DNA of 36,535 nt from Bordetella parapertussis (lineage in GTDB: Bacteria; Pseudomonadota; Gammaproteobacteria; Burkholderiales; SG8-39): the NCBI GenBank assembly GCA_945885335.1, contig CAMCYY010000003.1:1-36535 (forward strand), given 5' to 3'. A program made the translations under genes and the position numbers. The notes under the pieces were generated by a model. That model was not told where the DNA came from and made no database searches. It saw only the letters and a program-made list of their open reading frames with translations. Shown here one piece after another: positions 2,864 through 36,535 of this stretch (the stretch's first letter is position 1; every line of letters starts with the position of its first letter).

Positions 2864-2896
2864 GGTGAGTCCTTCCTGTCTGGGTGGTGCCTGGAT

Positions 2897-3538: not shown

Positions 3539-3580
3539 TGAACTCAGGGGCGGGGACAGGGGTGGAAAAGTCGGTCGCCG

Positions 3581-4320: not shown

Positions 4321-4334
4321 TGCCGGCTCCGGTG

Positions 4335-5684
4335 TCAGCTTGCGGGTGCCGCCGGCGGCGTGCCGCCTGCATCATCCGCGCCGTCACCGCCGGGCTTGCG
4401 CGGGCGCCGGCGGCGACGCGGGCGCTTTTCGTCGAGTGCGGCGGGTTTCAGCATGTCTTCGCGCACGTCGGGCGAGGCATGCTGGAATTTTTCCCACCAC
4501 TCGGTCAGTTCCGCCGGGCATTCGCCGCTTGCAGAGCGCAGCGCGAGGAAGTCGTAGCCGACGCGAAAGCGCTCGTTCTCCAGCAGCCCGAACGGGCGCT
4601 TGCCGCTGCGCTGTTCGAAGCGCGGCTGCAGCAGCCAGATTTCCTTCATCATCGCCGTAAAACGGCGCGGGATCGCGAGCTTGTCGGTTTGCTTGTCGAG
4701 CACATGGTCCATGGCGAGGTGCAAGGCGGCAATCGGGCGGGCGTTCTGTTGCGCCTTGTTCCACGCCGGCAGCACTTCGTGCCACAGCAGCGAGGCGAAC
4801 AGGAAGGCCGGCGAAACCGGATTGCCGGCGCGCACGCGTTCATCGGTTTCGCCCAGCGCCAGCATGACGAAGCGCTCTCCCATGGGTTGCTCGAGGATGA
4901 CATCCAGCATGGGTAGCAGGCCATGGTGCAGCCCCGCTTCGCGCAGTTCGCGCACGCAGGGACCGGCATGGCCCGAGAGCAGCAACTTCAGCATTTCATC
5001 GAACAACCGCGCCGCGGGCACATTTTCGATCAACTTGGCCATGTCGGCGATCGGCGCCCGAGTGGCGGGGTCGATCGTGAACTGCAGCTTCGCGGCGAAA
5101 CGCGCCGCGCGCAGCATGCGCACCGGGTCCTCGCGGAAGCGCGCGCGCGGGTCGCCGATGATGCGAACCGATTTCTTCTTGATGTCGCGAAGGCCGTTAT
5201 GGAAGTCGAGGATGGACTCGTCGTGCGGGTCGTAATACATGGCGTTGACCGTGAAGTCGCGCCTTGCCGCATCTTCTTCGCGGTTGCCGTAGACGTTGTC
5301 GCGCAGCACCCTGCCGTGCTCGTCGGTATCTGACGAATCGCCGGCGCGGAAGGTCGAGACCTCGATGGTTTCGGCGCCGAACATGCAATGCACCAGCTTG
5401 AAGCGCCGGCCGATCAGGCGCGAGCGCCGGAACAGGCGGTGCACTTCCTCGGGCAGGGCGTCGGTGGCGACGTCGTAGTCTTTGGGTGGCACGCTCAGCA
5501 GCAGGTCGCGCACCGCGCCACCGACAACATAGGCCGAATAACCGGCCTGCTGCAGTACTTCACAGGTTTTGCGCGCGCCATGGGACAGGGATTCGCGCCG
5601 CACGCCATGCTTGCTCACGGGAATGACGGAAGGTCCGGATCGGGAGTCCAGCCTGAGTACGCGTCGGATGAATTTCTTGATCAA
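4335..5684 (-). CDS. pcnB: Poly(A) polymerase I
   Basis: VGGAVRDLLL, DYDVAT, the PAP signature LIGRRFKLVH, RRDFTVNA, EDPVRMLRA and an Arg-rich tail; upstream of folK. Confidence 0.96.
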   Translation of the reverse strand: MIKKFIRRVLRLDSRSGPSVIPVSKHGVRRESLSHGARKTCEVLQQAGYSAYVVGGAVRDLLLSVPPKDYDVATDALPEEVHRLFRRSRLIGRRFKLVHCMFGAETIEVSTFRAGDSSDTDEHGRVLRDNVYGNREEDAARRDFTVNAMYYDPHDESILDFHNGLRDIKKKSVRIIGDPRARFREDPVRMLRAARFAAKLQFTIDPATRAPIADMAKLIENVPAARLFDEMLKLLLSGHAGPCVRELREAGLHHGLLPMLDVILEQPMGERFVMLALGETDERVRAGNPVSPAFLFASLLWHEVLPAWNKAQQNARPIAALHLAMDHVLDKQTDKLAIPRRFTAMMKEIWLLQPRFEQRSGKRPFGLLENERFRVGYDFLALRSASGECPAELTEWWEKFQHASPDVREDMLKPAALDEKRPRRRRRPRKPGGDGADDAGGTPPAAPAS

Positions 5685-9567: not shown

Positions 9568-10419
9568 CTAAGGCTCCATTGCATTCTTGTAGCGCCGCCG
9601 CGCCGCCTCTTCCTTTATCACTTCGTCGATTTCGCGGATCACGCTGCCCACGCTCACCGGCTTGTTGCTGATGGCAAAGCGGCCGGTGAGCTCAGAGTCG
9701 GGCAGCAGCTTGCCGCCCTGGTAGAGCGCCCAGATTTCCTTGCCGTACTGAGAGGTGAGCAGCTCGGGCGCAAAGCGCCCGAAGTAGACGGCGAGATTGT
9801 TCACATCGCGCTCCAGCATGGCGCCCGCGCTGTTGTTGCCGGCGGCATCCACAGCCTGCGGCAGGTCGATGATCACGGGGCCGGTGGCATCCAGCAGGAT
9901 GTTGAATTCGGAGAGATCGCCGTGGACGATGCCGGCACACAGCATGCGCACCACTTCGCGGATCAGCTTCTGGTGGAAGTCGCGCGCCTGCCCGGGCGTG
10001 AGTTCGACATCGTTCAGGCGCGGCGCGGCGTGGCCTGCGGCGTCAGTCACCAGTTCCATTAGCAGCACGCCTTCGAGGAAGTTGTAGGGCTCGGGCACGC
10101 GCACGCCCACGGCGGCGAGGCGGCGCAGCGCATCCACTTCGGCGCTCTGCCATGCCGCTTCCTGTTCCTGGCGGCCGTAGCGCGAACCTTTCTCCATGGC
10201 GCGCGCCCGGCGGCTGTTCTTCACCTTGCGGCCTTCGGTGTACTGCACCGCCTGGCGAAAGGCGCGCTTGTCGGCTTCCTTGTAGACCTTGGCGCAGCGG
10301 ATGTCCTCGCCGCAGCGGACCACGTACACGATCGCTTCCTTGCCGCTCATGAGCTGGCGGATCACCTCATCGACGAGGCCTTCCTCGACGAGTGGTAGGA
10401 GTCTTTTTGGGGTTTTGAT
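9568..10419 (-). CDS. RIO1-like Ser/Thr kinase (PA4780 family); probable start at ATC 10419 rather than GTG 10365
   Basis: SGKEA, AKVYK, VHGDLSEFN and IIDLPQAV motifs. The frame extends upstream as (I)KTPKRLLPLVEEGLVDEV, which resembles the family N-terminus. Confidence 0.9.
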   Translation of the reverse strand: MKTPKRLLPLVEEGLVDEVIRQLMSGKEAIVYVVRCGEDIRCAKVYKEADKRAFRQAVQYTEGRKVKNSRRARAMEKGSRYGRQEQEAAWQSAEVDALRRLAAVGVRVPEPYNFLEGVLLMELVTDAAGHAAPRLNDVELTPGQARDFHQKLIREVVRMLCAGIVHGDLSEFNILLDATGPVIIDLPQAVDAAGNNSAGAMLERDVNNLAVYFGRFAPELLTSQYGKEIWALYQGGKLLPDSELTGRFAISNKPVSVGSVIREIDEVIKEEAARRRYKNAMEP

Positions 10420-14320: not shown

Positions 14321-17300
14321 GTGAATCCCCGTTTCGTCCATCTTCGCCTGCACAGCGAGTATTCGATTACCGACGGCATCGTCCGCATCGACGATGCGGT
14401 GGCGCACGCGGCCAAAGACGGCATGCCCGCGCTGGCGATCACCGACCTGGCGAACCTGTTCGGCATGGTGAAGTTCTACAAGGCGGCGCGCAAAAAGGGC
14501 GTCAAGCCCGTGATTGGTTGCGAGCTGTGGATCACGAATGATTCGGAGCGCGACAAGCCGCATCGCCTGATTGTGCTGGTGCAGTCGCGCGCCGGTTACC
14601 TGCACCTGTGCCAGTTACTGACCCGCGCCTGGCTGGAGAATCCGCATCGCGGCCGCGCCGAGGTTCGCAAGGACTGGTTTCAAACGGATGGAACAGAGGG
14701 GCTGATTGCCCTGTCCGGCGCCATGAACGGCGACGTGGGTGCCGCGCTGCTGCAGGGCAATGCCAAACAGGCAGAACGCCTGGCCGGGGAGTGGGCAAAG
14801 CTGTTCCCGAAGCGCTACTACCTCGAACTGCAGCGCTCCGGCGCCAAACAAAGCGAGGCCTGGCTGCAGGCCTCGGTGCAACTGGCCGGACGCACCGGCC
14901 TGCCGGCCGTGGCCACGCATCCGGTGCAGTTCATCACGCCGGAGGAGTACACCGCGCATGAGGCAAGGGTGTGCATCTCCGAGGGCCATGTGCTGTCGGA
15001 CCAGCGTCGGCCGCGCCATTTCAACGAAACGAATTACTTCCTGTCGCAGGCCGAGATGTGCGAGCTGTTCGCCGACCTGCCCGAGGCGCTGGCGAATTCC
15101 GTGGAAATCGCGCGCCGCTGCAACCTGGAACTCGAACTGGGCAAATCAAAGCTGCCGCAGTTCCCCACGCCGGGTGGCGAGAGCCTCGATGATTACCTGA
15201 TGTCGCAGGCGAAGATCGGGCTGGAGAAACGCCTCGCATCGCTCTACCCGGACGCAGCAGCGCGTGCCGCCGCGGCGCCGCGCTATTACGAGCGCCTCTC
15301 CTTCGAGGCTGGCACCATCGGCCAGATGGGTTTCCCCGGCTACTTCCTGATCGTGGCCGACTTCATCAACTGGGCGAAGAACAATGGCGTGCCGGTGGGG
15401 CCAGGCCGCGGTTCGGGGGCCGGTTCGCTGGTGGCCTACTCGCTGGGCATCACCGACCTCGATCCGCTGCGCTACAACCTCCTGTTCGAGCGCTTCCTGA
15501 ATCCGGAGCGGGTGTCCATGCCCGATTTCGACATCGACTTCTGCCAGGACGGGCGTGACCGCGTCATCGATTACGTACGCAACAAGTACGGCAAGGAGTG
15601 CGTGTCGCAGATCGCCACCTTCGGCACCATGGCGGCAAAAGCCGTGGTGCGCGACGTGGCGCGCGTGCTTGAGTGGCCCTACAGCCGCGCCGTCGAACTC
15701 GCCAAGCTGATTCCCTTCCAGCCGGGCAAGGTGGTCACGCTCAAGCCGCGCACGGACCCGAACGACACGCAGACCATCTATGCCCGCGAAGTCGAGCCGC
15801 AGATCAGCCAGCGCGAAGAGTCCGACGAAGAGACGCGCGAACTGCTGGCGTTGTGCATGCAGCTCGAAGGCCTCACGCGCAACGTCGGCATGCATGCCGG
15901 CGGCGTGCTGATTGCGCCCGGCAAGCTCACCGATTTCTGTCCGCTGTATGCCGCGCAGGGCTCCGACAACGTGGTGTCGCAACTGGACAAGGACGATGTG
16001 GAAGCCGCGGGCCTCGTGAAGTTCGACTTCCTTGGCCTCACCACACTGACTGTGCTCGACTGGGCGCTGGGCAACATCAAACGCCTCGATCCGTCGTTCA
16101 ACCTGACGCTGGAGCAGATTCCGCTGGATGATGTGGCGGCGTATCGCATTTTTTCCAGTGCCAATACTGCCACGGTGTTCCAGTTCGAATCGCGCGGCAT
16201 GCGCGACCTGCTGAAGCGCGCCCGGCCGGACCGCTTCGAGGACATCATTGCGCTGGTGGCGCTGTACCGCCCCGGCCCGATGGACCTGATCCCCGAATAT
16301 TGCGACCGCAAGCACGGCAAGGCGGTCGAGTACCCCGATCCGCGCGTCGAATCCATTCTCTCGGAGACCTACGGCATCATGGTCTATCAGGAGCAGGTGA
16401 TGCAGATGGCGCAGATCGTCGGCGGCTACTCGCTGGGCGGCGCCGACCTGCTGCGCCGTGCCATGGGCAAGAAGAAGGCCGATGAAATGGCCGAGCAGCG
16501 CAGCCTGTTCCGCGCCGGTTCCGCCGTGGGCGGCCTGACCGAGCGCAAGGCCGACGAGATCTTCAATCTCATGGAGAAGTTTGCCGGCTACGGCTTCAAC
16601 AAGTCGCATGCCGCCGCCTACGCGCTGGTGGCCTACCACACGGCCTGGTTCAAGGCGCACCACCCCTCGGCCTTCATGGCGGCGAACATGTCGGCCGCGA
16701 TGGATGACACCGACAAGCTCTGTCTGTTCTGGCGTGATGCGCTGACCAATGGTTTGAAAGTGCAGGCGCCCGACATCAATGTCGGCGAATACCGCTTCGT
16801 GCCGGTGGATGGCGCGACGATTCGTTATGGGCTCGGTGCGGTGAAAGGCACCGGCGAGTCGGCCATCGGCGCCATCATCAGGGCACGTGAAGCCGGCGGA
16901 CCGTTCAGAGATGTGTTCGACCTGTGCCAGCGCGTGGACAAGCGCACCGTCAACCGCCGCGTCATCGAGGCACTGGTGCGTGCCGGCGCCTTCGACAAGC
17001 TGAATGACAACCGCGCCAGCGTGCTGGCCACCGTGGGCATCGCCATGGAGGCGGCGGACCAGGCCGAGCGCAATGCAAACCAGGTCAGCCTGTTCGGCGG
17101 CGGCGGGGACGAGCAGGCCGAAACCGGTCTGGCGATGATCGCCCGGCCGCGCTGGAGTGAGCGCGAGCGCCTGGCCGAGGAAAAGGCGGCGCTGGGCTAT
17201 TACTTCAGCGGCCATCCCTTCACCGGTTACGCAAAGGAAGTGCGCCAGTTCCTGCGCACCGACATCCGCCGCGCGCTGACGGGCGACGGCGAAAAGACCA

Positions 17301-17821
17301 TGGGCGGCGTGGTGTTCGCGGTGCGCCGCGGCTTTGGCAACAAGGGCATGCTGGTGCAGCTCTCCGATGGCACCGAGTCCGAGCCGCTGGAGATCAATGT
17401 CTATCCGGAAGTCTTCGACCGCTACCGCAACATCCTCAAGGAAGACGCGCTGGTGTTCATGGACGTCAAGGTGCGCTCATTCCGCCCCAAGACCGAGGAG
17501 GGCGACGGTAACCTGATCACCCGCGTCACCGCCGAGCGCGTCTATGACCTGCCCTCGGCACGCAACCGTTTTGCACGCAGCATGCGCCTGTCGATGAACG
17601 GCAACGCTTCGCAGGCCGGTGCGGGTGCGGTAGGGCGGCTGAAGAAACTGCTCGAACCGCATCGCAACGGCGCCTGCCCGGTGGAAATCCAGTACAGCAA
17701 TGGCGATGCGAAGGTGGAACTGCGCCTTGGTGATGACTGGCGCGTGAAGCTCGACGATGCGCTGATGACTTCGCTCAACGAATGGCTGAAGCCGGAGAAC
17801 GTGCAGGTGAATTACGGCTGA
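14321..17821 (+). CDS. dnaE: DNA polymerase III alpha subunit
   Basis: PHP motif FVHLRLHSEYS, GPGRGSGAGS, catalytic PDFDIDF, KFDFLGL, FNKSHAAAY and clamp motif QVSLF; probable GTG start at 14321. Confidence 0.98.
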   Translation: MNPRFVHLRLHSEYSITDGIVRIDDAVAHAAKDGMPALAITDLANLFGMVKFYKAARKKGVKPVIGCELWITNDSERDKPHRLIVLVQSRAGYLHLCQLLTRAWLENPHRGRAEVRKDWFQTDGTEGLIALSGAMNGDVGAALLQGNAKQAERLAGEWAKLFPKRYYLELQRSGAKQSEAWLQASVQLAGRTGLPAVATHPVQFITPEEYTAHEARVCISEGHVLSDQRRPRHFNETNYFLSQAEMCELFADLPEALANSVEIARRCNLELELGKSKLPQFPTPGGESLDDYLMSQAKIGLEKRLASLYPDAAARAAAAPRYYERLSFEAGTIGQMGFPGYFLIVADFINWAKNNGVPVGPGRGSGAGSLVAYSLGITDLDPLRYNLLFERFLNPERVSMPDFDIDFCQDGRDRVIDYVRNKYGKECVSQIATFGTMAAKAVVRDVARVLEWPYSRAVELAKLIPFQPGKVVTLKPRTDPNDTQTIYAREVEPQISQREESDEETRELLALCMQLEGLTRNVGMHAGGVLIAPGKLTDFCPLYAAQGSDNVVSQLDKDDVEAAGLVKFDFLGLTTLTVLDWALGNIKRLDPSFNLTLEQIPLDDVAAYRIFSSANTATVFQFESRGMRDLLKRARPDRFEDIIALVALYRPGPMDLIPEYCDRKHGKAVEYPDPRVESILSETYGIMVYQEQVMQMAQIVGGYSLGGADLLRRAMGKKKADEMAEQRSLFRAGSAVGGLTERKADEIFNLMEKFAGYGFNKSHAAAYALVAYHTAWFKAHHPSAFMAANMSAAMDDTDKLCLFWRDALTNGLKVQAPDINVGEYRFVPVDGATIRYGLGAVKGTGESAIGAIIRAREAGGPFRDVFDLCQRVDKRTVNRRVIEALVRAGAFDKLNDNRASVLATVGIAMEAADQAERNANQVSLFGGGGDEQAETGLAMIARPRWSERERLAEEKAALGYYFSGHPFTGYAKEVRQFLRTDIRRALTGDGEKTMGGVVFAVRRGFGNKGMLVQLSDGTESEPLEINVYPEVFDRYRNILKEDALVFMDVKVRSFRPKTEEGDGNLITRVTAERVYDLPSARNRFARSMRLSMNGNASQAGAGAVGRLKKLLEPHRNGACPVEIQYSNGDAKVELRLGDDWRVKLDDALMTSLNEWLKPENVQVNYG

Positions 17822-18196: not shown

Positions 18197-18718
18197 TCAG
18201 TTGCGGGGCTGGCTGCCTTGGTCGCCCCCGTCTTGCGGGACAGCCGGACGGCCCTGGCGAAATTCCTTGATCGCGGTCTCGTCATGCAGGGTGTTGAGTG
18301 TTACGGCGCTGAGCGCGAGGTAGGGCGTGATCGCCAGCAGTGCGCCGGCCACGGCCGGTGCCCACATGAAGGGCTCGGACGGATGCGCCTGCAGATAGAT
18401 GTCGCGCATGTACAGCACCCGCCGTGCTGCCGATACCAGCGTCAGGCCGATCAGCACCCAGCAGAAATATTCCAGCATGCCGGGGGCCCACTGCGAGTAG
18501 TTCAGGAGGCCGAGGCCGGAAAAAAAAGCGAGGCCCCAGATGCTGAGTAGCAGGATGTCGTTCCATGACATGCGCACGGACTTCGGCGTTTTTCCGAATG
18601 CATCCGGTCCGGGTTGCTGCAGTTTGACCATCTTGTAGCCCACGATGATCGCCGCTGCGCCGGCGAAGAGATAGATGTAGGCGAGCATGCGTATCGACAG
18701 TATGGGTATTAGTTCCAT
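18197..18718 (-). CDS. Hypothetical membrane protein (about 4 TM), paralog of 18747-19238
   Basis: Starts MELIPILSIR; shares the WNDI, GLGLLN, WAPG.LEYFCWVL and NTLHDE blocks with its neighbour. Confidence 0.8.
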   Translation of the reverse strand: MELIPILSIRMLAYIYLFAGAAAIIVGYKMVKLQQPGPDAFGKTPKSVRMSWNDILLLSIWGLAFFSGLGLLNYSQWAPGMLEYFCWVLIGLTLVSAARRVLYMRDIYLQAHPSEPFMWAPAVAGALLAITPYLALSAVTLNTLHDETAIKEFRQGRPAVPQDGGDQGSQPRN

Positions 18719-18746
18719 GCGGCAATCAGTTCCATGTTTTTTCGGT

Positions 18747-19238
18747 TCAATCGCGGGACTGGCTCGCGACCTGGGAAGCGGCGCGCAATTCCTCGCGCAC
18801 GCCTTCGTCATGCAGCGTGTTGATCGTCATGGCGCACAGCAGCACAAGGGGGATGACAGCCGATGCGGCACCGACGACGGCGGCGCGCATGTTGAAGGGG
18901 GGCGCGGTCGGGTCGGCGGCGAACTTGTCCTTCATGATCTTGATGCGCGTTGCCGCCGACAGCAGTGTGAGCATGCCGAGCACCCAGCAGAAATACTCTA
19001 GCAGCCCCGGCGCCCAGGGCTTGTGGTTCAACAGGCCCAGGCCGGCGATGAAGCTGATTGACCACACGCCGAGCAGCATGATGTCGTTCCAGATGCTGTA
19101 GTCCACCTTGCTCGAAGGCAGTTTGTCGGCCTTCTTGAGCAGATTGAGTGTCAGGGCACCGAGTGCCACCGCGGCCAGCCCGGCGATGGTGAAGAGCCAG
19201 GCAATCAGGCGCACGGGCAACAGGGGCAGGAAATCCAT
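18747..19238 (-). CDS. Hypothetical membrane protein (about 4 TM), paralog of 18197-18718
   Basis: Four hydrophobic segments and the same conserved blocks. Confidence 0.8.
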   Translation of the reverse strand: MDFLPLLPVRLIAWLFTIAGLAAVALGALTLNLLKKADKLPSSKVDYSIWNDIMLLGVWSISFIAGLGLLNHKPWAPGLLEYFCWVLGMLTLLSAATRIKIMKDKFAADPTAPPFNMRAAVVGAASAVIPLVLLCAMTINTLHDEGVREELRAASQVASQSRD

Positions 19239-26770: not shown

Positions 26771-29035
26771 ATGAAATTCCGCTTTCCCATCGTCATCATC
26801 GACGAGGACTTCCGCACGGAGAACACCAGCGGATCAGGCATACGCGCGCTGGCCAAGGCCATCGAGGACGAGGGCATGGAAATCCAGGGCGTGACCAGCT
26901 ACGGCGACCTGTCGCAGTTTGCCCAGCAGCAAAGCCGCGCCTCGGCCTTCATCCTGTCCATCGACGATGAGGAATTCACCCCGGGCCCGGAACTGGACCC
27001 GGCCGTGCTGAACCTCAGAAAATTCATCGAGGAAATCCGCTTCAAGAATGCGGACATCCCGATCTACATCTACGGCGAGACGCGCACCTCGCGCCACCTG
27101 CCGAATGACATTCTGCGCGAACTGCATGGCTTCATCCACATGTTCGAGGACACGCCGGAGTTCGTTGCCCGCCACATTATCCGCGAGGCGCGGGCCTATC
27201 TCGGCGGGCTAGCGCCACCCTTTTTCCGTGCACTGGTGGATTACGCCCAGGATGGCTCCTACTCATGGCATTGCCCCGGACATTCCGGTGGCGTGGCCTT
27301 CCTGAAAAGCCCGGTGGGGCAGATGTTCCACCAGTTCTTCGGCGAGAACATGCTGCGCGCCGACGTGTGCAACGCGGTGGATGAACTCGGCCAGTTGCTC
27401 GACCACACCGGCCCGGTGGCGGCCTCCGAGCGCAATGCCGCGCGTATCTTCGGCGCCGACCATTGTTTTTTCGTCACGAACGGCACTTCGACCTCTAACA
27501 AGATGGTGTGGCATGCGAATGTGGCGCCGGATGACATCGTTGTGGTGGACCGCAACTGCCACAAGTCCATCCTGCATGCGATCACCATGACTGGCGCGAT
27601 TCCGGTTTTCCTCACCCCGAAGCGCAATCACCTGGGCATCATCGGGCCGATTCCGCTGGAGGAGTTCAGCCCGGAGAGCATTGCGAAGAAAATCGAGGCG
27701 AATCCCTTTGCCCGCGCCGCCAAACGCAAGAAGCCGCGCATCCTGACCATCACGCAGAGCACCTACGACGGCGTGCTCTACAACGTGGAAATGCTCAAGG
27801 ACACGCTCAATTCGACCATCGACACGCTGCACTTTGACGAGGCCTGGCTGCCGCACGCGACCTTCCATCCGTTCTACAAGGACATGCACGCCATCGGCAA
27901 GAACCGGCCGCGCAGCAAGGACGCTATGGTGTTTGCCACGCACTCCACGCACAAGCTGCTGGCCGGCATCTCGCAGGCTTCGCAGATACTGGTGCAGGAA
28001 TCGCAGAACAAAAAACTCGACCGCACGCGCTTCAACGAGGCCTACCTGATGCACACCTCTACTTCGCCGCAGTACGCCATCATCGCTTCATGCGATGTGG
28101 CGGCGGCGATGATGGAGCCGCCCGGTGGCACTGCGCTGGTGGAGGAGTCCATTCTGGAAGCGCTGGATTTTCGTCGCGCCATGAAGAAAGTGGATGACGA
28201 GTGGGGCAAGGACTGGTGGTTCAAGGTGTGGGGGCCGGAGAAGAACGTCACCCAGGAAGGTATCGGCTCGCGCGAGGAATGGGTGCTGAAGGCGAACGAC
28301 AAGTGGCACGGCTTCGGCAATCTCGTGAGCGGCTTCAACATGCTCGATCCGATCAAGGCTACGGTGATCACGCCCGGCCTGGATGTGTCGGGCAAGTTTG
28401 CCAAGACCGGAATTCCGGCGGCCATTGTCACGAAGTACCTCGCCGAGCATGGCGTCATTGTCGAGAAGACCGGACTGTATTCGTTCTTCATCATGTTCAC
28501 CATCGGCATCACGAAGGGCCGCTGGAACACGCTGGTGACGGCGCTGCAGCAGTTCAAGGACGATTACGACAAGAACCAGCCGGTGATCAAGGGGCTGACC
28601 GGGTTCTGCCAGAAGTATCCGCGCTACGAGAAGTATGGCCTACGTGACCTGTGCGACCAGATCCACGGCATGTACAGGGCGAATGACGTGGCAAAGTTGA
28701 CCACCGAGATGTACACCTCGGACATGCAACCGGCGATGAAACCCTCGGATGCGTTTGCCGCATTGGCGCATGGCGAGATCGACCGCGTCGAAATCGACAA
28801 GTTGGAGGGCCGTGTCACCAGCGTGCTGCTCACGCCGTATCCGCCGGGCATTCCGCTGCTGATTCCGGGCGAGCGCTTCAACGCGACCATCGTGCGCTAC
28901 CTGCAGTTCGCGCGCGAATTCAACCGCAAGTTCCCCGGCTTCGAGACCGACATCCACGGCCTGGTGGATGTGGAAAGTGAAAATGGGTCGAGCTATTTTG
29001 TGGATTGTGTGCGGCCAGCGGCTGGTCAGTATTGA
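26771..29035 (+). CDS. Arginine/lysine/ornithine decarboxylase (PLP-dependent, with wing domain); substrate not determinable
   Basis: WHCPGHSGG, FVTNGTSTSNK, DRNCHKS, HFDEAW, PLP-Lys motif HSTHKLL, TSTSPQY and PYPPGIP. Confidence 0.96.
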   Translation: MKFRFPIVIIDEDFRTENTSGSGIRALAKAIEDEGMEIQGVTSYGDLSQFAQQQSRASAFILSIDDEEFTPGPELDPAVLNLRKFIEEIRFKNADIPIYIYGETRTSRHLPNDILRELHGFIHMFEDTPEFVARHIIREARAYLGGLAPPFFRALVDYAQDGSYSWHCPGHSGGVAFLKSPVGQMFHQFFGENMLRADVCNAVDELGQLLDHTGPVAASERNAARIFGADHCFFVTNGTSTSNKMVWHANVAPDDIVVVDRNCHKSILHAITMTGAIPVFLTPKRNHLGIIGPIPLEEFSPESIAKKIEANPFARAAKRKKPRILTITQSTYDGVLYNVEMLKDTLNSTIDTLHFDEAWLPHATFHPFYKDMHAIGKNRPRSKDAMVFATHSTHKLLAGISQASQILVQESQNKKLDRTRFNEAYLMHTSTSPQYAIIASCDVAAAMMEPPGGTALVEESILEALDFRRAMKKVDDEWGKDWWFKVWGPEKNVTQEGIGSREEWVLKANDKWHGFGNLVSGFNMLDPIKATVITPGLDVSGKFAKTGIPAAIVTKYLAEHGVIVEKTGLYSFFIMFTIGITKGRWNTLVTALQQFKDDYDKNQPVIKGLTGFCQKYPRYEKYGLRDLCDQIHGMYRANDVAKLTTEMYTSDMQPAMKPSDAFAALAHGEIDRVEIDKLEGRVTSVLLTPYPPGIPLLIPGERFNATIVRYLQFAREFNRKFPGFETDIHGLVDVESENGSSYFVDCVRPAAGQY

Positions 29036-29145: not shown

Positions 29146-31305
29146 CTAGTCGTCGTGCCGCGGTGGATGGCCGAGCGCGGTGAACATCGCGTCGAATTCC
29201 TCGCCCGGCATGATGCCGCCTTCCCAGACCACGTAGATGCGGTCCTGCGGCAGCAGGTTGCGCCGGCGATGCGTGATCACCAGTCGGCCGATCGGCAATT
29301 CCCCCAGCGCCTTCTGCACTTTTATCTCGGTTTCGTAGTCGAGCATGCTGGTGTATTCGTCGAGCAGCAGGAAGCGCGGCTGCTTGTACAGCGCACGCGC
29401 CAGCAGGATGCGCTGGCGCTGGCCGCCGGAGAGGTTCGTTCCCATGCCGCCCACCAGTGACTGGTAGCCCATGGGCATCATGGCAATGGCTTCGTGCACC
29501 TGTGCGACCTTCGCCGCCTCGATCACGCGGTCCTCGTCCGGCGTGCCATCGAACATGCAGATGTTGTCGAAGATCGATCCGGAGAACAGGAAGTCCTCCT
29601 GCATCACCATGCCCAACATGGAGCGGTAGGTGGCGAGGCCCAGTTTCGAGGTCGGCATGCCGTTCAGCAGCACCTCACCCTCGTCAGGCACCAGCATGCC
29701 TGCGACGATCTTGATCAGTGTCGATTTGCCGCAACCAGACGGGCCGACGATGGCGACCGAATCCTGCGGCGTCAGTTTCAGGTTGATGTTCTTCAGCACC
29801 GCGTCCTCACCGGGGGCGTAGCGGAAGCTCACGTTGCGCAGTTCGATCTCCAGCGGTCCGTCGCGGTCGACGCGCAACCGGTCGGCCGGCAGGCTTTCGA
29901 TTTCCGGTTCGGTGAGCACGATGTCGGCGAGGCGCTCGCCCTGCAGCCGGAGCAGCCTGAAGCTCATGAGGCGGTCGGCCAGCGCCATGATGCGCATCAG
30001 GAACTGGTCCTTGTAGGCGAGGAAGGCCACCATCATGCCGACGGTGAAGGTCTTATCGAGGATCATGCCGACCATCAGGAACAGGATCAGCGAGACTTCC
30101 AGCGCGCTGACCAGGCCGTTGGCACTCTGGTAGATCAGATCCAGCTTGCGGATCGCGACGGTGGCGTTGTAGACGCCGATCTGGCGGTTCATCCAGCCGG
30201 CCACCTGCCAGCCCATCTGCGAGAAAAACTTGATGGCTGGAATGCCGCGCAGGGTTTCGAACAGGAAGGAGTCGCGCGATGCGGAACGGACGATGCGCTC
30301 TTCGGTGGCGGCACGGTAGCGTCCGAACATCATGAAGCGCACCAGCACGTAGCCCAGTGCCGCCAGCAGTACCACGCCGGTCAGTTTGGGGCTGTAGAAG
30401 AACATCACGGTGAGGGCGATGGAGGCCATTAGGGCGTCCAGCACGGTCTCGATGAAATGCGTGCTGATCGTGCTCTGTATCTCGTCCACTGACCGGAAGC
30501 GCGAAATGACATCGCCGACATGGCGTTTTTCGAAAAACGACACGGGCAGGCGCACCAGATGCTGGAACACGCTCGAACTGGAGCGCAGGTTCCACGACAC
30601 GGTGGCCGCCAGCAGCACCCAGCCGCGCAGCATGCGTGTGGCAGTGCGCGTGACCGAAATCAGGAACAGCGCGACCACGACAACGACCAGCAGATTGACA
30701 TCGGCGGTGACCACGACCTCGTCAATGATCCACTGGTTGATCAGCGGCAGGAATATTCCCAGTCCCTCCAGTGCCAGCGACAGCAGCAGCACCTGTGCGA
30801 ATGCGCCCAGCAGGTCGCGGTCGCCGGTCAGGAACATGCGCAGGTTGAGTTGCGTTTTCGCGACCTCGGGTTTGAAGTCGTCGCGTGGGGTCAGTTCTAG
30901 GGCAACGCCGGAAAAATGCTGGCCGACTTCCTCCATGCCGTACTCGCGGCGGCCCAGCTCGGGGTCGTTCACGATCAGCCGGCCGCGGTGCATGCCCACC
31001 ATGACCACAAAGTGGTTCAGGTCCCAGTGCAGGATGCAGGGGGTTTTCAACTGCGGCAGTTCATCGACCTCGAGGCGCACGGCGCGGGCGTTGAACTTGA
31101 GGTCGTCGGCGATTTCCACCAGGCGGGCCAGCGTGGTGCCTTTCATGGACACCGGATGGCGGCGCCGCAACATGAGTACATCGGTTTCGTAGCCGGCCGC
31201 GCTGGCGCACATGGCAAGGCAGGCCAGGCCGCATTCTGCTTCCTCGGTCTGCAGGAGGATCGGCGGTTCACGCCGCGACCAGAGGGAGAAGAAATTCGCG
31301 CTCAT
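29146..31305 (-). CDS. Peptidase-containing ABC transporter (C39 + TMD + NBD), CvaB/MchF/RaxB-like
   Basis: LQTEEAECGLACLAM (catalytic Cys), ILHWDLNHFVV (His), FSGVALELTP, Walker A GPSGCGKST, LSGGQRQR, Walker B LLLDE; probable ATG at 31305. Confidence 0.95.
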   Translation of the reverse strand: MSANFFSLWSRREPPILLQTEEAECGLACLAMCASAAGYETDVLMLRRRHPVSMKGTTLARLVEIADDLKFNARAVRLEVDELPQLKTPCILHWDLNHFVVMVGMHRGRLIVNDPELGRREYGMEEVGQHFSGVALELTPRDDFKPEVAKTQLNLRMFLTGDRDLLGAFAQVLLLSLALEGLGIFLPLINQWIIDEVVVTADVNLLVVVVVALFLISVTRTATRMLRGWVLLAATVSWNLRSSSSVFQHLVRLPVSFFEKRHVGDVISRFRSVDEIQSTISTHFIETVLDALMASIALTVMFFYSPKLTGVVLLAALGYVLVRFMMFGRYRAATEERIVRSASRDSFLFETLRGIPAIKFFSQMGWQVAGWMNRQIGVYNATVAIRKLDLIYQSANGLVSALEVSLILFLMVGMILDKTFTVGMMVAFLAYKDQFLMRIMALADRLMSFRLLRLQGERLADIVLTEPEIESLPADRLRVDRDGPLEIELRNVSFRYAPGEDAVLKNINLKLTPQDSVAIVGPSGCGKSTLIKIVAGMLVPDEGEVLLNGMPTSKLGLATYRSMLGMVMQEDFLFSGSIFDNICMFDGTPDEDRVIEAAKVAQVHEAIAMMPMGYQSLVGGMGTNLSGGQRQRILLARALYKQPRFLLLDEYTSMLDYETEIKVQKALGELPIGRLVITHRRRNLLPQDRIYVVWEGGIMPGEEFDAMFTALGHPPRHDD

Positions 31306-31315
31306 GAGATTGCCT

Positions 31316-32566
31316 TCAAAGCTTGCGTGCCAGGGCATACAGCGGATCGAGCATCCACTCGATCAGGCGGCGGCGGTCCAGCTCGATGTCGGCCGACAGG
31401 GTCAGGCCGGGTCGCAGCCGGATGGTGGAGCCGTAGGCCTCGATCTGTTCGCTGTCCAGTTTGACCCGGATGCGGAACATGTTTCTGTCCTTGGCGGCTG
31501 CCGCTGCCGGCGCGTCCAGGTCGGTCGCCGCCACATCGGCTTCCGAGACCTTGGTGACGGTGCCGCTGTACTGTCCGAATTTTTCAAAGGGAAATGCGTC
31601 GTAGCGCAGCGTGACACGGCGCCCCGGGCGGATCTGCGCCATGGCGCTGCTGGGTACATACAGTACGGCCTGCAGGGTGGCATTGGCGGGGACGATGGCG
31701 GCAATCAGCGTCGCCGGTTCGACGCGCTGTCCGATTGAGCCGAGTAGCGCGGTGACGGTGCCGTCCACCGGCGCGTGCAACTGCAGGGCGCTGTCCGAAC
31801 GGCGCTGCAGGCGGTCCTGTTCCAGCGCGAGGCGGGTGCGTTCCGCACCCGCAGAGTCGGCCTGGGTCCGTGCCTTGAGCGCATCGAGTTCGGTTTGCGC
31901 GCCGCGCGCCTCCGCCTGCAGGGCCTCGCGCGCGCGCATCAGCGACTGCAGTCGTGCACTCTGGTCCAGCTGCTGGTTGAGCTGCTGCTGGTATTGCAGG
32001 TCGGAAATGATGCGCTCGTCGGCCAGCGGCTTGAGGTTTGCAATGACGCGCCCCGAGGCGGCGATGAGCTGCTGTTGCAGGCGAAGTTCTTCATCGATAT
32101 GCACCAGGTCGCGATTCGCGCGGCGCATGCGCTCGGCCAGACCCGCGGCGGTTGCTCTGGCCGCCGCCTGCTGTTCGCGCGTCTGCAGCCGGATCTGGTC
32201 GGCCTGCAGGCCGAGGCTGCGATCGACCAGCGCTGCAGTTGGGCCATCCTGTCCGACGCGTTCGCGGCTGAGCTGTACCAGCAATTCTCCGGCGCGCACC
32301 TCCTGCCCGTCGCGTACCAGGATCGCCGAGATCACTGCGCTTTCGGGTGAACGCAGCCGGATGATGCCCTCGGCGGGGGCGATTACGCCGGTTACTCTTT
32401 CCTTGCGGGTGTATGAACCGAAAAACAGGAAGGTGAGCGCGACCACGGCGATCACGCTGATCAGTGCCACGGGCACCCAGACCTTCACCGGGCGTATGGA
32501 ACTGACATCGCCGGTCCAGCGGCTTTGCCTGGCTTCGATGGCCTGCTTGCGGAACAGGTCGCTCAT
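31316..32566 (-). CDS. HlyD-family periplasmic adaptor, CvaA/RaxA-like
   Basis: MSDLFRKQAI start (ATGA overlap with the tolC-like stop), one TM, GSYTRKERVTG, coiled coil, APVDGTV, LRYDAFPFEKFG, LRPGLTLSADI and LIEWMLDPLY. Confidence 0.94.
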   Translation of the reverse strand: MSDLFRKQAIEARQSRWTGDVSSIRPVKVWVPVALISVIAVVALTFLFFGSYTRKERVTGVIAPAEGIIRLRSPESAVISAILVRDGQEVRAGELLVQLSRERVGQDGPTAALVDRSLGLQADQIRLQTREQQAAARATAAGLAERMRRANRDLVHIDEELRLQQQLIAASGRVIANLKPLADERIISDLQYQQQLNQQLDQSARLQSLMRAREALQAEARGAQTELDALKARTQADSAGAERTRLALEQDRLQRRSDSALQLHAPVDGTVTALLGSIGQRVEPATLIAAIVPANATLQAVLYVPSSAMAQIRPGRRVTLRYDAFPFEKFGQYSGTVTKVSEADVAATDLDAPAAAAAKDRNMFRIRVKLDSEQIEAYGSTIRLRPGLTLSADIELDRRRLIEWMLDPLYALARKL

Positions 32567-34062
32567 GGCGTGCTCCGCTGTGGTGGCATTGTGGCTGTTG
32601 ACGCAGCGGTCTCGAAGGCGGGTTCGATCCTGGCGAGGAACGCGGGGCTCAGGTCGCCGATCAGGGCGGCAATCCGTGACTGGGCCGCCAGCACTGCGAT
32701 GCGTGCGCGCAGCAGTTCGCGCTGCGTCGAAAAACTCAGCTGCTGTGAATTGAGCAGGTCGATGTTCGTGCGCGCGCCGGCATCGAAGGCCTTGCGCGTC
32801 GCCGCCAGTGTGGCATTGGCGGTGGCGAGCACGCCGTTCTGGATGCGCCACTGCTCGATGGCGCGCTGCAGGGCGAGATAGGCCTTGCGCAATTCGGTTT
32901 CCAGCACCCGGCCTGCGTCATCGAGCTGTGCCTGGGCTGCCTCCGAGAGCGCGCTGGCTTCCCGTACGCGGGCCTCGCCCACGCCGCCGGTGTAAAGCGG
33001 AATGGCGAGTTGCACACCGATGCCCGTCGAAGGGATGGTGCCTGAAAGGCCACCGCTCAATCGTGAGCGATCCACATTGCCGACCAGGTCCACGGTCGGG
33101 TTCAGTGCGGCGCGTTGCACGGTGATGCCGGCCCTGGTCGCGCCCAGCGTGGCAGTGAGTCGCGCCAGCGTGGGGTTTTTTTCGTAGGCGAGCGTGACGG
33201 CATTGATGACGTCATTCGGAATCACCAGCGGGGGCAGGCTGTTGCGGACCCGGGTGACCTTCTCGACGCTGGTCCAGGCCAGCCGGCCCAGTTCCGCCAG
33301 TTGTGTGCGATACAGCGCCTGGGCGCCCTCGATCTGCGACAGCAGCGATTCGCTGCGGGATGAGGTTTCCATGACTTCGACCACGGTGCCGACGCCGCCT
33401 TCCATGCGGCGCTGGTTCAAGGTGCGCTGTGTCAGCAGGACGGATCGCTCCTGGTTGAGCAGGTCGGTCTCTTCGTCCGCCTGTGCTGATCCGAGGAAGG
33501 CCTCGATGGTACGGAGCAGGATGTCCTGCCTGCCCTCGGCCTCTGCTTCGCGTGAAGATGATTGCTGGAATTGTGCCTGGTCGATGCCGGCGTCGGCTTG
33601 AGGTCGATACAGCGGAATCGACAGGCGCAACCCGCCGGAAGTGCTGCTGAAGGGCAGGGTACCGCCGATGTCGGCAAGCTCGCGGCGATAGCCGAGCACA
33701 CCGCCCAGGCTGGGGCGCAATCCGCCGCGTGCCTGTTCAAGTCTTTGTTCTTCGGCGCGTGTGCGTGCATCAGCTGCGATCAGGGCTGGCTGCGCCGCAA
33801 GCGCCATCTCCCCCATCTGCGTCAGACTGACGACGGCAGTGGAGGGGCTGCGGTGCGCGCGTGAGACCTGAGTGTCGGCGATGGCGAGTTCGGTGGTCAT
33901 GCGCAGCGGGATGCCTGCCTCTGGTTCAGCCTGCGCCAGCATTGGCAGAGCCGTTGCGGCGAATAGCGCGGCAACCATCAGGAGGCTGAGCGGCTGCCGC
34001 GCAGGATGAGGCTGTCTGTGAGGGGGCGCGCTGGCGAGCATTAAGAATTCTATAGCGGGCAT
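32563..34062 (-). CDS. TolC-family outer membrane channel (start uncertain: 34062, 34041 or 33978)
   Basis: Signal peptide ending LAQA; two OEP repeats (LSIPLY, LAIPLYTGG); FDAGARTNIDLLNSQQ. Confidence 0.92.
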   Translation of the reverse strand: MPAIEFLMLASAPPHRQPHPARQPLSLLMVAALFAATALPMLAQAEPEAGIPLRMTTELAIADTQVSRAHRSPSTAVVSLTQMGEMALAAQPALIAADARTRAEEQRLEQARGGLRPSLGGVLGYRRELADIGGTLPFSSTSGGLRLSIPLYRPQADAGIDQAQFQQSSSREAEAEGRQDILLRTIEAFLGSAQADEETDLLNQERSVLLTQRTLNQRRMEGGVGTVVEVMETSSRSESLLSQIEGAQALYRTQLAELGRLAWTSVEKVTRVRNSLPPLVIPNDVINAVTLAYEKNPTLARLTATLGATRAGITVQRAALNPTVDLVGNVDRSRLSGGLSGTIPSTGIGVQLAIPLYTGGVGEARVREASALSEAAQAQLDDAGRVLETELRKAYLALQRAIEQWRIQNGVLATANATLAATRKAFDAGARTNIDLLNSQQLSFSTQRELLRARIAVLAAQSRIAALIGDLSPAFLARIEPAFETAASTATMPPQRSTP

Positions 34063-34063
34063 G

Positions 34064-34091
34064 AAAAAAAGCCGCCTGTTGGCGGCTTTTT
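34064..34091 (-). terminator. Intrinsic terminator between the precursor gene and the tolC-like gene
   Basis: A7-GCCGCC-TGTT-GGCGGC-T5 on the + strand, which gives a stem plus U7 on the - strand about 47 nt after the precursor stop. Confidence 0.88.
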
Positions 34092-34137
34092 CGCAGGATG
34101 AAGTGCCGGCACGTAGCCGGCATCGACATCTAACGTG

Positions 34138-34371
34138 TCAGGGGAAAATGCAATTCGGTGTGCCATCCGGGTTAAGGCCGACCAATACGGCACCAACAGG
34201 GCATGACGGGCCGGTACCGCCGCCGCCACTGCCGCCACCACCGCATTGATTGCTGCCCTGGCTGCTGCCATGGCCACTACCGTGACCACTGCCATGGTTG
34301 CCTTTGCCGCCGCGCCGTTTTTTGCCGCCGCCACTGACTTGAAATAACTCTTCGGGTTTCAACTCTCTCAT
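34138..34371 (-). CDS. Double-glycine-leader secreted peptide precursor (77 aa), Gly/Ser/His-rich
   Basis: The leader MRELKPEELFQVSGG matches the 15-aa colicin V-type leader (MRTLTLNELDSVSGG). GGGAG RBS; directly upstream of a C39 exporter system. Confidence 0.9.
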   Translation of the reverse strand: MRELKPEELFQVSGGGKKRRGGKGNHGSGHGSGHGSSQGSNQCGGGGSGGGGTGPSCPVGAVLVGLNPDGTPNCIFP

Positions 34372-34537
34372 GAGTGTGCTCTCCCAATATTGTTAGCAAG
34401 GGCGCGCACGTGTGATTGCGCGCGGAATTAAGTAAAACTACGCATGGCCTACAGTGGCAGAATATTCGCATATTTTGCCGTTCGGTAACAAGTCTTTGTG
34501 CCGGGTATTTACCAATATTTCAATGTGTTAAGCTAAT

Positions 34538-34554
34538 GTCATAAGAATTATGAC
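34538..34554. promoter_or_regulatory. Candidate operator palindrome upstream of the precursor
   Basis: GTCATAA-GAA-TTATGAC, a perfect 7-3-7 inverted repeat in an AT-rich intergenic region. Confidence 0.45.
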
Positions 34555-34618
34555 CATGTCATGAGGAGCCGCTGGTGTGGGGCCATTTCCGGCCGGATGC
34601 CTGAAAAGGGAGCAGCAC

Positions 34619-35764
34619 CTAGCGACCAGTCAGGATGCTCAGGCCGAACACGCGCTCCAGCATCCAGACCAGCGCAATCAGCGCAATCAGCAGTGAGCCG
34701 CCAGTCATGATGCCGCGGCGGTAGAAATTCGTGCTGCGCAGTGCGTAGGCCAGCGGCAGGAAGGCCGCAACGATGGCCAGCTGCCCGGCCTCGACGCCGA
34801 GGTTGAATCCCACCAGCGCCAGCAGCAGCGCATCGCGCGGCAGGCCGAGGTCAGCCAGCACGCTGGCAAAGCCGAAGCCGTGGACCAGCCCGAACAGGAA
34901 GGCCATCATCCAGCGTTTCTCGGCGATCACCGGGCGCACATTGTTCAACGCGGCAAGCACGACCGAAAGGGCGATTGTCGATTCGACCAGGCGCGAGGGC
35001 AGCGAGATCACTTCCAGCGCGGCCAGTGACAGGGTGATGGAGTGCGCCACGGTGAACGAGGTCACCACTTTCAGCACATCCCAGAACACCGGGGTGAAGC
35101 GTGGCGAGGCCTGCCACTGTCCGTGGCGCGATGCCACCAGCACCGCCGGCAGCAGCAGTGACAGCAGGAACAGGATGTGGTCAAAGCCGATCCAGATGTG
35201 CCACACGCCTTCACGGCCGAAGTCGATGAACTGCTCGAGCAGGGTGCGCGTGCGCAGCTCGAATTTCTGTTCGCCACGGTCGGCGGAAAAAACACCGGTG
35301 AGCGTCCCGCTGGCGGAGTCAAGTTTCAGCAGACCCTTGTGCTGGGTGTCGAAATCAAAGAACAGGCTGTAGCGGATATCCAGCGCATCCGCGGCGCGCA
35401 CACATTCGCCTTCGAATCGGAGCACGGCATAGGCGCCGTCGGAGTGGTCATCGACCAGCTGTGTGGTGGCGCGCAACGGGCAGTCCTCTGTGCCGGTTTG
35501 AACCTTCAGTCTTGCCAGCGCATAGGAGGCGATGTCAGCGTGCTTCGCCCTGAGTTCGCCCCAGGTGATTTCGCCATTGCCGTCAGCATCCAGGCCGATG
35601 GCGTACTCGAGGTCGCGCAGCGCGATGTCCCATTGGCCGGTGACTTGTCTTGCTTCGACCTTCAGGCTCAGGTAACTGTCGCTGGGCTTGTGTGCCAACG
35701 CCGGCGATGGCGGCAGCAACAGCGTCAGCAGCAGGGTGCCGAAAATCAACCGGATATTCTTCAT
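34619..35764 (-). CDS. HupE/UreJ-family membrane protein with an N-terminal periplasmic domain
   Basis: Signal peptide ending ALA-H, then GVWHIWIGFDHILFLLSLLL, FTVAHSITL and FGLVHGFGFA; the ATG overlaps the upstream stop. Confidence 0.9.
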   Translation of the reverse strand: MKNIRLIFGTLLLTLLLPPSPALAHKPSDSYLSLKVEARQVTGQWDIALRDLEYAIGLDADGNGEITWGELRAKHADIASYALARLKVQTGTEDCPLRATTQLVDDHSDGAYAVLRFEGECVRAADALDIRYSLFFDFDTQHKGLLKLDSASGTLTGVFSADRGEQKFELRTRTLLEQFIDFGREGVWHIWIGFDHILFLLSLLLPAVLVASRHGQWQASPRFTPVFWDVLKVVTSFTVAHSITLSLAALEVISLPSRLVESTIALSVVLAALNNVRPVIAEKRWMMAFLFGLVHGFGFASVLADLGLPRDALLLALVGFNLGVEAGQLAIVAAFLPLAYALRSTNFYRRGIMTGGSLLIALIALVWMLERVFGLSILTGR

Positions 35765-36535
35765 TTTGCGATCTTTCGCACGGCTTCGGCCAGCGCTCGA
35801 TAACGTGGGTCTTCGTAGCCGGTGCTGTCCATCCATGCAAGAGCAGCCTCTGCCACCCTACGGTCCTTTGCAGCCAGCGCCACTTCCATCAGGAGGCGCG
35901 CATCGCGCGGCTCGCGTTGCACCGCCCAGCCTTCGATGGCCAGCCTGGCCGCCCTGGCCGGGTCGTTATGCAATATCAACCGATGGTGCGCCTCTTCCTG
36001 CAGATGCAGGCGGTCGCCGCGCAGTGCCGCAGCGGCAAAGCGGTCATCAAGGGCGCGGATGTAGCGCGCCGCATCCGGTGACTTCAGCACGTGGGCTGCC
36101 AGCGCCAGGCGCAGCAGCAGCACATCAGAGCTTTCCCAGTTGCGCAGCAGCGTGATCACCTCTGAAGGGCGACTCTCGTCAAGCAGCAGGTCGGCATAGG
36201 CCGCGAGCACGAAGCCGTCAGTCAGACCGGTGGCGATCGCTTCCTTGAAATGGCGTTCGGTGCGCAACTTGTCGCCCGAACGCAGTGCCATTTCAGCCAG
36301 TCGCGTCAACACCCATTGCTGGTATTCGGTATTGCGTGGGGGGGTTCTCTCCAGCGCAGCAGACAGTGCGGCATAAGCCTGCCTCGATTTGCCGTTGATA
36401 CTGTCGATGACCGCGAAGCAGGCCGCCGATGCGAGCGGCGTTGCCTTCGGCGCCAGGCGCTCGCAAGCGGTGCGTGCGCCGGCATAGTCGGCCTGGACCA
36501 GATGCAGGGCGAATTGCCAGGAGATGGCTTCGGTG
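35761..36535 (-). CDS. TPR-like helical protein, 3' part; runs off the right edge
   Basis: Frame open to the window edge, with Ala/Leu-rich helical repeats (LAEMALRSG, AAYADLLLDE) and WAVQREPRDARLL; usual partner upstream of HupE/UreJ-like genes. Confidence 0.8.
   Translation of the reverse strand, partial: TEAISWQFALHLVQADYAGARTACERLAPKATPLASAACFAVIDSINGKSRQAYAALSAALERTPPRNTEYQQWVLTRLAEMALRSGDKLRTERHFKEAIATGLTDGFVLAAYADLLLDESRPSEVITLLRNWESSDVLLLRLALAAHVLKSPDAARYIRALDDRFAAAALRGDRLHLQEEAHHRLILHNDPARAARLAIEGWAVQREPRDARLLMEVALAAKDRRVAEAALAWMDSTGYEDPRYRALAEAVRKIAK

Follow-up and report, generated by a model that had tools for sequence, protein, structure and literature searches.

A predicted class II microcin-type secretion cassette with its own TolC-like channel and a rare His-Gly-Ser-repeat peptide in freshwater Burkholderiales-type bacteria

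A 36,535-nucleotide (nt) stretch of DNA (hereafter the window, contig 3 of a 2.9-Mb assembly of 264 contigs that is 80% complete) from an uncultured lake bacterium, a freshwater Burkholderiales-type metagenome-assembled genome (MAG), carries on the chromosome a four-gene unit that, judged from its sequence, is a class II microcin-type peptide secretion cassette. The kind of secretion system is already known; what appears to be new is the cargo family, carried in a mobile unit of four genes in which TolC is obligatory and no immunity gene was detected. The peptide is very probably cleaved and exported by the pump encoded beside it, and with moderate confidence the whole is read as a cassette exporting an unmodified, class IIa-like bacteriocin against related freshwater bacteria, the antibacterial role being putative. 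The parts of the cassette are as follows (aa, amino acids).

29146-34371, minus strand: four-gene unit, in the order precursor, intrinsic terminator, TolC-like protein, HlyD adaptor, C39-peptidase ABC exporter (PCAT)
34138-34371, minus strand: precursor open reading frame (ORF), 77 aa, a 15-aa leader plus a 62-aa core
34327-34371, minus strand: 15-codon leader of the double-glycine type, MRELKPEELFQVSGG, with cleavage predicted after Gly15
34138-34326, minus strand: core peptide and stop codon, 62 aa, 5.67 kDa, isoelectric point 9.5
34064-34135, minus strand: two RNA hairpins in the 75-nt spacer between the precursor and TolC genes, the second an intrinsic terminator/attenuator
34064-34091, minus strand: intrinsic terminator, A-tract, 6-bp stem GCCGCC/GGCGGC, AACA loop, 7 T
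32563-34062, minus strand: TolC-family outer-membrane channel, 499 aa, start may lie further in; Pfam OEP 8.8e-50, two repeats
31316-32566, minus strand: HlyD-family periplasmic adaptor, 416 aa from MSDLF; HlyD_3 2.9e-15, TIGR01843 2.9e-43
29146-31338, minus strand: PCAT, 730 aa (719 aa from Met12, 31305); Peptidase_C39 1.3e-30, ABC_membrane 3.1e-26, ABC_tran 2.5e-31
30880-31263, minus strand: coding span of the C39 domain of the PCAT

The leader, MRELKPEELFQVSGG, satisfies the microcin signal Motif 1, M...Rx[IL]x9G[GAS] (as given in the available text of PMC12219008), and its residues M1, R2, L4, E8, V12, S13, G14 and G15 are invariant across all 12 aligned sequences. The computed core agrees with a preliminary description of the locus, which had predicted a 62-aa product starting GKKRR; its parts are a basic patch (GKKRRGGKG), three repeats of the HGS type, a Gly-rich linker and, at the C-terminus, a beta-hairpin bracketed by Cys57 and Cys74, with an NPDG turn and the terminal residues ...NCIFP. 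There are just three His in the core of the window, Gln standing at positions where relatives carry His. An AlphaFold2 model built on a 12-row alignment is weak overall (mean predicted local distance difference test, pLDDT, 61), placing a leader helix at residues 6-12, disorder at residues 36-53 (pLDDT <50) and the hairpin strands at 62-66 and 72-75 (pLDDT ~83) around the NPDG turn. The mature peptide is therefore proposed, on the basis of this model, to be mostly disordered and to end in a small disulfide-stapled beta-hairpin. The precursor matched no Pfam or NCBIfam family; its nearest ESM Atlas clusters were annotated as 'SP_0924 family bacteriocin-like peptide' (double-glycine peptides) at 0.76-0.77, a level below that which shuffled sequences also reach, and structural matches of the peptide in that atlas are meaningless at a pLDDT of 0.41.

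The strict leader pattern was found in two ORFs of the whole 36.5-kb window, the precursor being one; the other (18702-19001, plus strand, 99 aa) has no family features and no exporter nearby, and is probably a chance match. A 94-aa Ala/Val-rich ORF (34050-34334, minus strand) overlaps the precursor gene in a different frame, and comparable alternative-frame or antisense ORFs of varying starts and lengths occur in three related loci (L007, L048 and L050, described below); the best explanation is that it arises from the repeated GGC, AGC and CAC codons.

Relatives of the precursor were few. A word-indexed protein search returned six proteins at E <= 0.01 among 54 candidates, including the window's own, and a profile searched against 1.84 billion representative proteins returned nine at E <= 0.001 (six at E <= 1e-10), one of which (P0013) matched in the repeats alone, lacks the leader and was not counted as a family member. 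Family matches occurred in 1 of 400 other genomes of the same order and in 7 of 316 others of the same family; five of these seven were clear, and the two weak ones (G843 and G991) cover the repeat part only, have stop codons inside and were likewise not counted. No match was obtained by tblastn of the cargo on 72,556 plasmids, and no second family peptide was found in the 80% complete assembly of the window. Scanning of genome contigs was swamped by the repeat pattern (at least 599 pattern matches, with one, L005, confirmed among the matches listed), and a metagenome scan with the family alignment gave 445 pattern matches with none confirmed by tblastn, a result for which a low-complexity filter is a possible cause and which is uninformative on rarity.

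The 17 sequences collected are built alike: a near-invariant leader of 15 aa, a patch of Lys/Arg, a linker of poly-Gly or poly-Pro, and a C-terminal part that varies and is usually bracketed by two Cys. Each core holds between two and eight His, mostly in His-Gly-Ser-(Gly/Ser/Asn) units, at positions that are themselves variable (Gln in the window, Tyr or Asn in other members), and 10 of the 17 cores have an odd number of Cys, three. Among the C-terminal modules are hairpins of three or more unrelated types, and tails rich in Pro or in Thr/Pro. Published microcin screens were aimed at Enterobacteriaceae and faecal metagenomes (available text of PMC12219008), and in full-text literature searching, with published putative-microcin lists outside the comparison, neither a double-glycine peptide with His-Gly-Ser repeats nor such a cassette was found described. 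By these comparisons the cargo defines a rare and apparently undescribed peptide family.

The three export genes are closely packed, the TolC stop overlapping the HlyD start as ATGA and the HlyD stop being separated from the PCAT start by a 10-nt gap if the PCAT begins at Met12 (31305); the alternative ATG at 31338 would overlap the HlyD gene by 23 nt. The TolC-like protein scored 203.7 bits (5e-60) against TIGR01844, under the cut-off of 225; counting its own gene, the assembly has six of the OEP family. Residues Gln30, Cys36, His109 and Asp125 of the PCAT fall in conserved columns when aligned with the peptidase domains solved for ComA and LahT, columns which we take to be the catalytic positions of ComA. 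The Cys36-His109 spacing equals that of the Cys32/His105 pair of CvaB (pair from the available text of PMC3335142), and the PCAT is 38.7-39.1% identical to annotated CvaB compared with ~28% to EhxB, a haemolysin-type exporter. It is the sole C39 peptidase gene found in the assembly. The preliminary description had claimed this gene order on one strand, the tight coupling and an intact C39 Cys and His; the domain assignments by Pfam and NCBIfam bear out the order, the ATGA overlap was read directly, the 10-nt gap holds with the start at Met12, and both residues align to ComA and LahT.

Seven loci in five site groups were compared: the window; L005/L047, from the window's genus and at the same genomic site (PCAT 88% identical to that of the window); L048, from the same genus at another site (81%); L049 and L050, from another genus, downstream of cytochrome bc1 and sspAB genes; L051, from another genus (74%); and L007, from a different family in the order (67%). 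In six of the seven the order precursor, terminator, TolC, HlyD, PCAT is kept to the extent that the contigs cover it, L007 having TolC, HlyD, PCAT, precursor. The four genes are the only shared content, the flanks differing between the five site groups, and an all-against-all comparison of flanking ORFs found none common to different site groups. TolC lies inside the module at all seven loci, and the precursor next to the homologous exporter is conserved in frame in the six loci other than the window, so that the locus is as self-contained, its TolC as dedicated and its small ORF as conserved as had first been supposed or asked. Measured against the window's proteins, the leader is 73-93% identical, the core 48-65%, TolC 44-65%, HlyD 54-81% and the PCAT 67-88%; leader codons differ by 107 synonymous versus 64 non-synonymous changes over 21 pairs, which are non-independent.

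Every locus with a family member holds a PCAT 67-88% identical to that of the window, while more distant PCATs (32-46% identity, best 46%) occurred in 14 of 399 other genomes of the class. Among 15 of the 16 loci of this distant kind (the weakest, G673, was left out), an HlyD gene was nearby in 14, a TolC-like gene abutted the pump in two and lay within ~6 kb in two more, and the strict leader pattern gave small ORFs in three, two of them convincing, with unrelated cores. Because these loci rarely have an adjoining TolC and their cores are unrelated, the built-in TolC and the cargo are taken to be specific to one exporter clade. DNA of the window was detected in lake and freshwater metagenomes from 10 studies, all 30 bins of the stretch being covered by contigs in four metagenomes, each from another study. 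One 4601-nt contig (run X9) covers 30196-34620 at ~98% identity (78 letters differing, 3 gaps) and reaches from the PCAT to upstream of the precursor, and the module is thus contiguous in other lake metagenomes; a depth spike in the bin 34087-34269 reflects low-complexity matches.

Candidate expression signals precede and follow the precursor. The 75-nt spacer folds at -39.6 kcal/mol (z -5.6), with none of 200 shuffles folding as well, and a canonical terminator lies 3' of the precursor in all seven loci, the spacer site not having been listed by a simple terminator consensus scan. A further stem-loop (34092-34135) stands between the precursor stop and the terminator, with equivalents in L005, L048, L049 and L050, and may stabilise the 3' end of a short precursor transcript. 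Upstream of the precursor are three further elements.

34379-34385, minus strand: Shine-Dalgarno-like GGGAGAG, 7 nt before the precursor ATG
34514-34542, minus strand: sigma-70-like promoter match, ATGACA, 17 nt, AATATT, TG before the -10; 9/12 positions, a consensus match only
34550-34563, minus strand: inverted repeat CATGAC-N3-GTCAT, ~180 nt upstream of the precursor start, candidate operator

GGGAGA or GGAGA likewise precedes the precursor ATG in L005 and L007. In all three loci of the window's genus (L005, about 9815-9829; L048, upstream of 10142) the DNA 130-190 nt upstream of the precursor start holds a palindrome of the form CATGAC-N3-G(T/G)CATG, which was not seen in the four loci of other genera; as L048 occupies another genomic site, the palindrome seems to be part of the cassette. 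In the window and L005 it is followed by a further conserved block, GGCAAAAT(A/G)TGCGA. Inspection of the promoter region, by eye only, found no convincing metal-regulator box.

Setting family knowledge beside the gene set, catalytic residues, leader, terminator and conservation read in the DNA, we infer cleavage, export and attenuation as follows. A promoter upstream of the small gene would drive strong transcription of the precursor, with most transcripts ending at the terminator 45-75 nt past the precursor stop and read-through yielding less TolC, HlyD and PCAT mRNA. Other peptide-antibiotic operons are known in which a terminator separates the precursor gene from those of the pump. The C39 domain would bind the helical 15-aa leader and cut after Gly14-Gly15, and ATP hydrolysis would then drive the 62-aa core through the PCAT, the HlyD adaptor and the cassette's own TolC-like channel straight to the outside; on the bacteriocin reading the variable C-terminal module would set specificity.

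Class II microcins have long been known from about ten enterobacterial examples and, to our knowledge, almost nothing is known of them in free-living freshwater bacteria. They are ribosomal peptides with a mature form below ~10 kDa and a 15-18-aa double-glycine signal (available text of PMC12219008), and class II microcin-type systems are reported to be widespread (available text of PMC12219008 and PMC9746304). The core (62 aa, 5.67 kDa) is within that size and the leader fits Motif 1, an adjoining catalytic-type C39 PCAT is present together with a membrane fusion protein, and a TolC is at hand, but within the cassette where it is normally a shared host gene. The preliminary description had inferred an undescribed secreted-peptide system; the apparent novelty of the cargo family stands, whereas the leader motif and the CvaB-like PCAT place the system itself in this known kind. 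Other classes fit less well. Features of class IIb (siderophore-) microcins, namely a C-terminus rich in Gly/Ser and genes that attach a siderophore, were not found, the core ending in a Cys-bracketed hairpin and the cassette holding no further genes; NHLP/Nif11 export is disfavoured by scores of 452.5 bits against a cut-off of 853.3 (TIGR03796) and 79.6 against 156.2 (TIGR03794) and by a 15-aa leader with no family match, thus no NHLP or Nif11 leader domain; and for HlyB/RTX export the catalytic Cys is present and TIGR01846 scored 412 bits against a cut-off of 725.

Among individual systems, that of microcin V (MccV; CvaC, Cvi, CvaA, CvaB and host TolC) is a close counterpart. The MccV core carries a C-terminal disulfide loop, a feature predicted here as well, together with a Gly-rich core for which no modification is predicted, a PCAT with the Cys-His spacing of CvaB and an HlyD-type adaptor. 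The leaders are of the same 15-aa double-glycine type and motif, 9 of 15 residues being identical to the MccV signal (sequence from the available text of PMC12219008). In contrast to the microcin V of E. coli, the present system is chromosomal in a freshwater Burkholderiales-type MAG, has TolC in the cassette and no immunity gene found, runs in the order precursor-terminator-TolC-HlyD-PCAT, and encodes an unrelated core with His-Gly-Ser repeats. MccAB1 of Acinetobacter baumannii is likewise a non-enterobacterial class II microcin with a PCAT plus a membrane fusion protein, and PCATs of A. baumannii plasmids are 41% identical to that of the window; it differs in having an adjoining small two-helix membrane immunity protein, where none was found here, and the cargos have no detected sequence relation. 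MccAB1 also illustrates that peptides of this type can take on a second role, a structural one.

Comparison with the solved structures of PCAT1, ComA and LahT (4ry2, 3k8u, 8hf4, 6mpz) gave a full-length alignment with PCAT1 of Clostridium thermocellum (4ry2; residues 29-712, E 3e-78) and aligned the C39 domain with LahT150 (1.5e-17) and ComA (4.2e-11), though these are Gram-positive systems without adaptor or outer-membrane channel and with unrelated cargos. The three-part build of ABC transporter, adaptor and TolC is shared with HlyB-HlyD-TolC, HlyB (7sgr, 9.7e-85) being one of the top solved matches and aligning with the whole of the PCAT. In HlyB-type pumps the C39-like domain lacks the catalytic Cys, and the cargos are large and bear C-terminal signals, whereas the present PCAT has the Cys, serves a cargo with an N-terminal leader and is ~28% identical to EhxB. 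Gly/His-rich eukaryotic antimicrobial peptides (shepherins) and Gly-rich disordered translocation domains of colicins also exist and act on microbial envelopes or pass through them; the likeness to these disordered, Gly/His/Ser-rich sequences is one of composition only, with origin, biosynthesis and export differing, and no homology is claimed.

The bacteriocin reading draws on core size, net charge and a C-terminal disulfide loop in the class IIa range; moreover, the core diverges faster than leader and PCAT and the C-terminal modules are of several unrelated types, which is the pattern expected of competition peptides. Several observations weigh against it. Validated class II microcins adjoin a small membrane immunity protein (available text of PMC12219008), and none was found in the cassette. 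An immunity protein can go unannotated (available text of PMC13188072), and every small ORF near the module was therefore scanned: among ORFs of 25-230 aa within 800 nt of the module at the seven loci no hydrophobic 19-residue window was found, the sole exception being an antisense frame over the L048 precursor that is an artefact of Gly/Ala codon repeats, and no immunity candidate emerged from the flanking ORFs, none of which is shared between the five site groups. The core had no likeness to validated microcins in Pfam, NCBIfam or the plasmid tblastn, a comparison that did not include the 41 validated sequences directly, and a regular His-Gly-Ser repeat is not a microcin feature in the literature searched, the word 'histidine' being absent from the available text of both PMC12219008 and a 2026 preprint. 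On two of these counts, a cargo unlike known microcins and a contrast with the immunity gene carried by ColV, the earlier expectation held. Immunity may be encoded elsewhere, may be needless in a producer without the target, or may be nonexistent as the peptide is non-toxic.

The genes beside the cassette, which bear on some of the alternatives, are these.

26771-29035, plus strand: Orn/Lys/Arg decarboxylase, 754 aa, 5.3e-150 (Pfam)
34619-35836, minus strand: HupE_UreJ_2 membrane protein, 405 aa, 3.2e-50 (Pfam)
35761-36534, minus strand: TPR protein, overlapping the HupE/UreJ-like gene and upstream of it; runs off the window

The decarboxylase gene is convergent with the PCAT across a 110-nt spacer; the end of L005 carries part of a copy, with 97% identity across the 379 aa compared. 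The HupE/UreJ-like and TPR pair is kept in L005 (82% and 75% identity) and missing beside the module in L048, L049/L050, L051 and L007; as it accompanies the module in the window and L005 only, which are one site with the same decarboxylase on the far side, it was rejected as part of the system. The N-terminal ~200 aa of the HupE/UreJ-like protein, outside the Pfam domain, contain an EF-hand-like loop, DADGNGEITWGEL. In L005 a TonB-dependent receptor gene (15359-17509, plus strand) follows the PCAT by 117 nt on the same strand, between module and decarboxylase, having been either inserted in L005 or lost from the window.

A peptide that leaves by the same route with a non-antibiotic role is a possible alternative of lesser standing: it might bind Zn, Ni or Cu (using the repeated His, which are spaced H-x3-H, together with the odd third Cys), self-assemble at the surface or in a matrix, or act as a signal. 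A role of this sort would need no immunity gene, which agrees with the absence of an immunity-type ORF at 7/7 loci, and His-Gly-Ser-x repeats are kept in all 17 members, with the third Cys in 10 cores. The long Gly-rich segment, disordered in the model, would be compatible with assembly, and Acinetobacter microcins reportedly form amyloid fibres that promote biofilm independently of killing (available text of PMC13188072); these fibre-forming microcins are also antibacterial, which tells against a non-antibiotic role. For metal, a HupE/UreJ-family gene lies just upstream of the cassette in the window and L005 and a TonB-dependent receptor just downstream in L005, but the former, with its TPR partner, adjoins the module in 2/7 loci (one site) and the latter in 1/7. 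The His are also replaceable by Gln, Tyr and Asn, with three left in the window's core; no metal-regulator box was recognised by eye in the promoter region; and C-terminal modules that are swappable and evolve fast suit competition better than they would a housekeeping metal role. The non-antibiotic roles that the preliminary description had suggested gained no direct support, the HupE/UreJ-like gene being the sole metal-flavoured neighbour.

More speculative, and rather doubtful, is the view of the family as a modular secreted-peptide platform distinct from a classical microcin, in which a conserved front end, made up of leader, basic patch, His-Gly-Ser repeats and Gly/Pro linker, would capture a transition metal or thread an outer-membrane pore. 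The interchangeable C-terminal modules would then be the hairpins, the Pro-rich tails and a Thr/Pro tail paired with a pump-fused glycosyltransferase, all on a mobile cassette of four genes that has a TolC of its own and needs no immunity gene.

It is unlikely that the precursor needs further modification, such as glycosylation, by enzymes encoded elsewhere, which would mean that the unmodified 62-mer is not the final product. A GT1-like glycosyltransferase sequence does lie 3' of the PCAT in two related site groups. In L048 a 457-aa ORF (3565-4938, minus strand) is followed by a 412-aa ORF (2330-3568, minus strand) with Glyco_tran_28_C and EryCIII-like_C domains, and in L051 (12910-16323, plus strand) the PCAT frame runs into a GT1-like domain of ~400 aa to give a 1137-aa ORF, the extension being 34% identical to the 457-aa ORF of L048 (E 5e-37) and the L051 cargo ending in a Thr/Pro-rich tail. 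In these loci the cargo may belong to a branch of the family that is glycosylated, or the pump may be fused with an enzyme, and the L051 junction could be an assembly error. The cassette of the window, in contrast, ends 110 nt before the convergent decarboxylase with no such enzyme inside, a search of its assembly with the L048 ORF as query returned no homologue (a weak point, the assembly being 80% complete), and no such gene is present in the sequence of five of the seven loci, two of the five ending at a contig edge before the expected place. That the small ORF arose by chance in DNA rich in G+C and in repeats, the exporter serving an unlinked cargo, is extremely improbable: the region is of low complexity (GGC, AGC and CAC codon repeats) with long alternative-frame ORFs, but the frame, start and 15-codon leader are conserved in seven loci with mainly synonymous change, the gene is bracketed by a ribosome-binding site and a terminator, and it is the sole family match in an assembly with a sole C39 exporter found.

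With four genes in ~5.2 kb and an outer-membrane channel of its own, the cassette would be portable for heterologous secretion work, and the contrast between a conserved front end and swappable C-terminal modules makes specificity directly testable by module swaps. The seven loci without a detectable immunity gene imply that producers avoid self-killing in some other way or that the peptide is no killer. If the cargo were a non-lethal extracellular metal-binding or matrix peptide, it would represent a new functional class of Gram-negative PCAT cargo.

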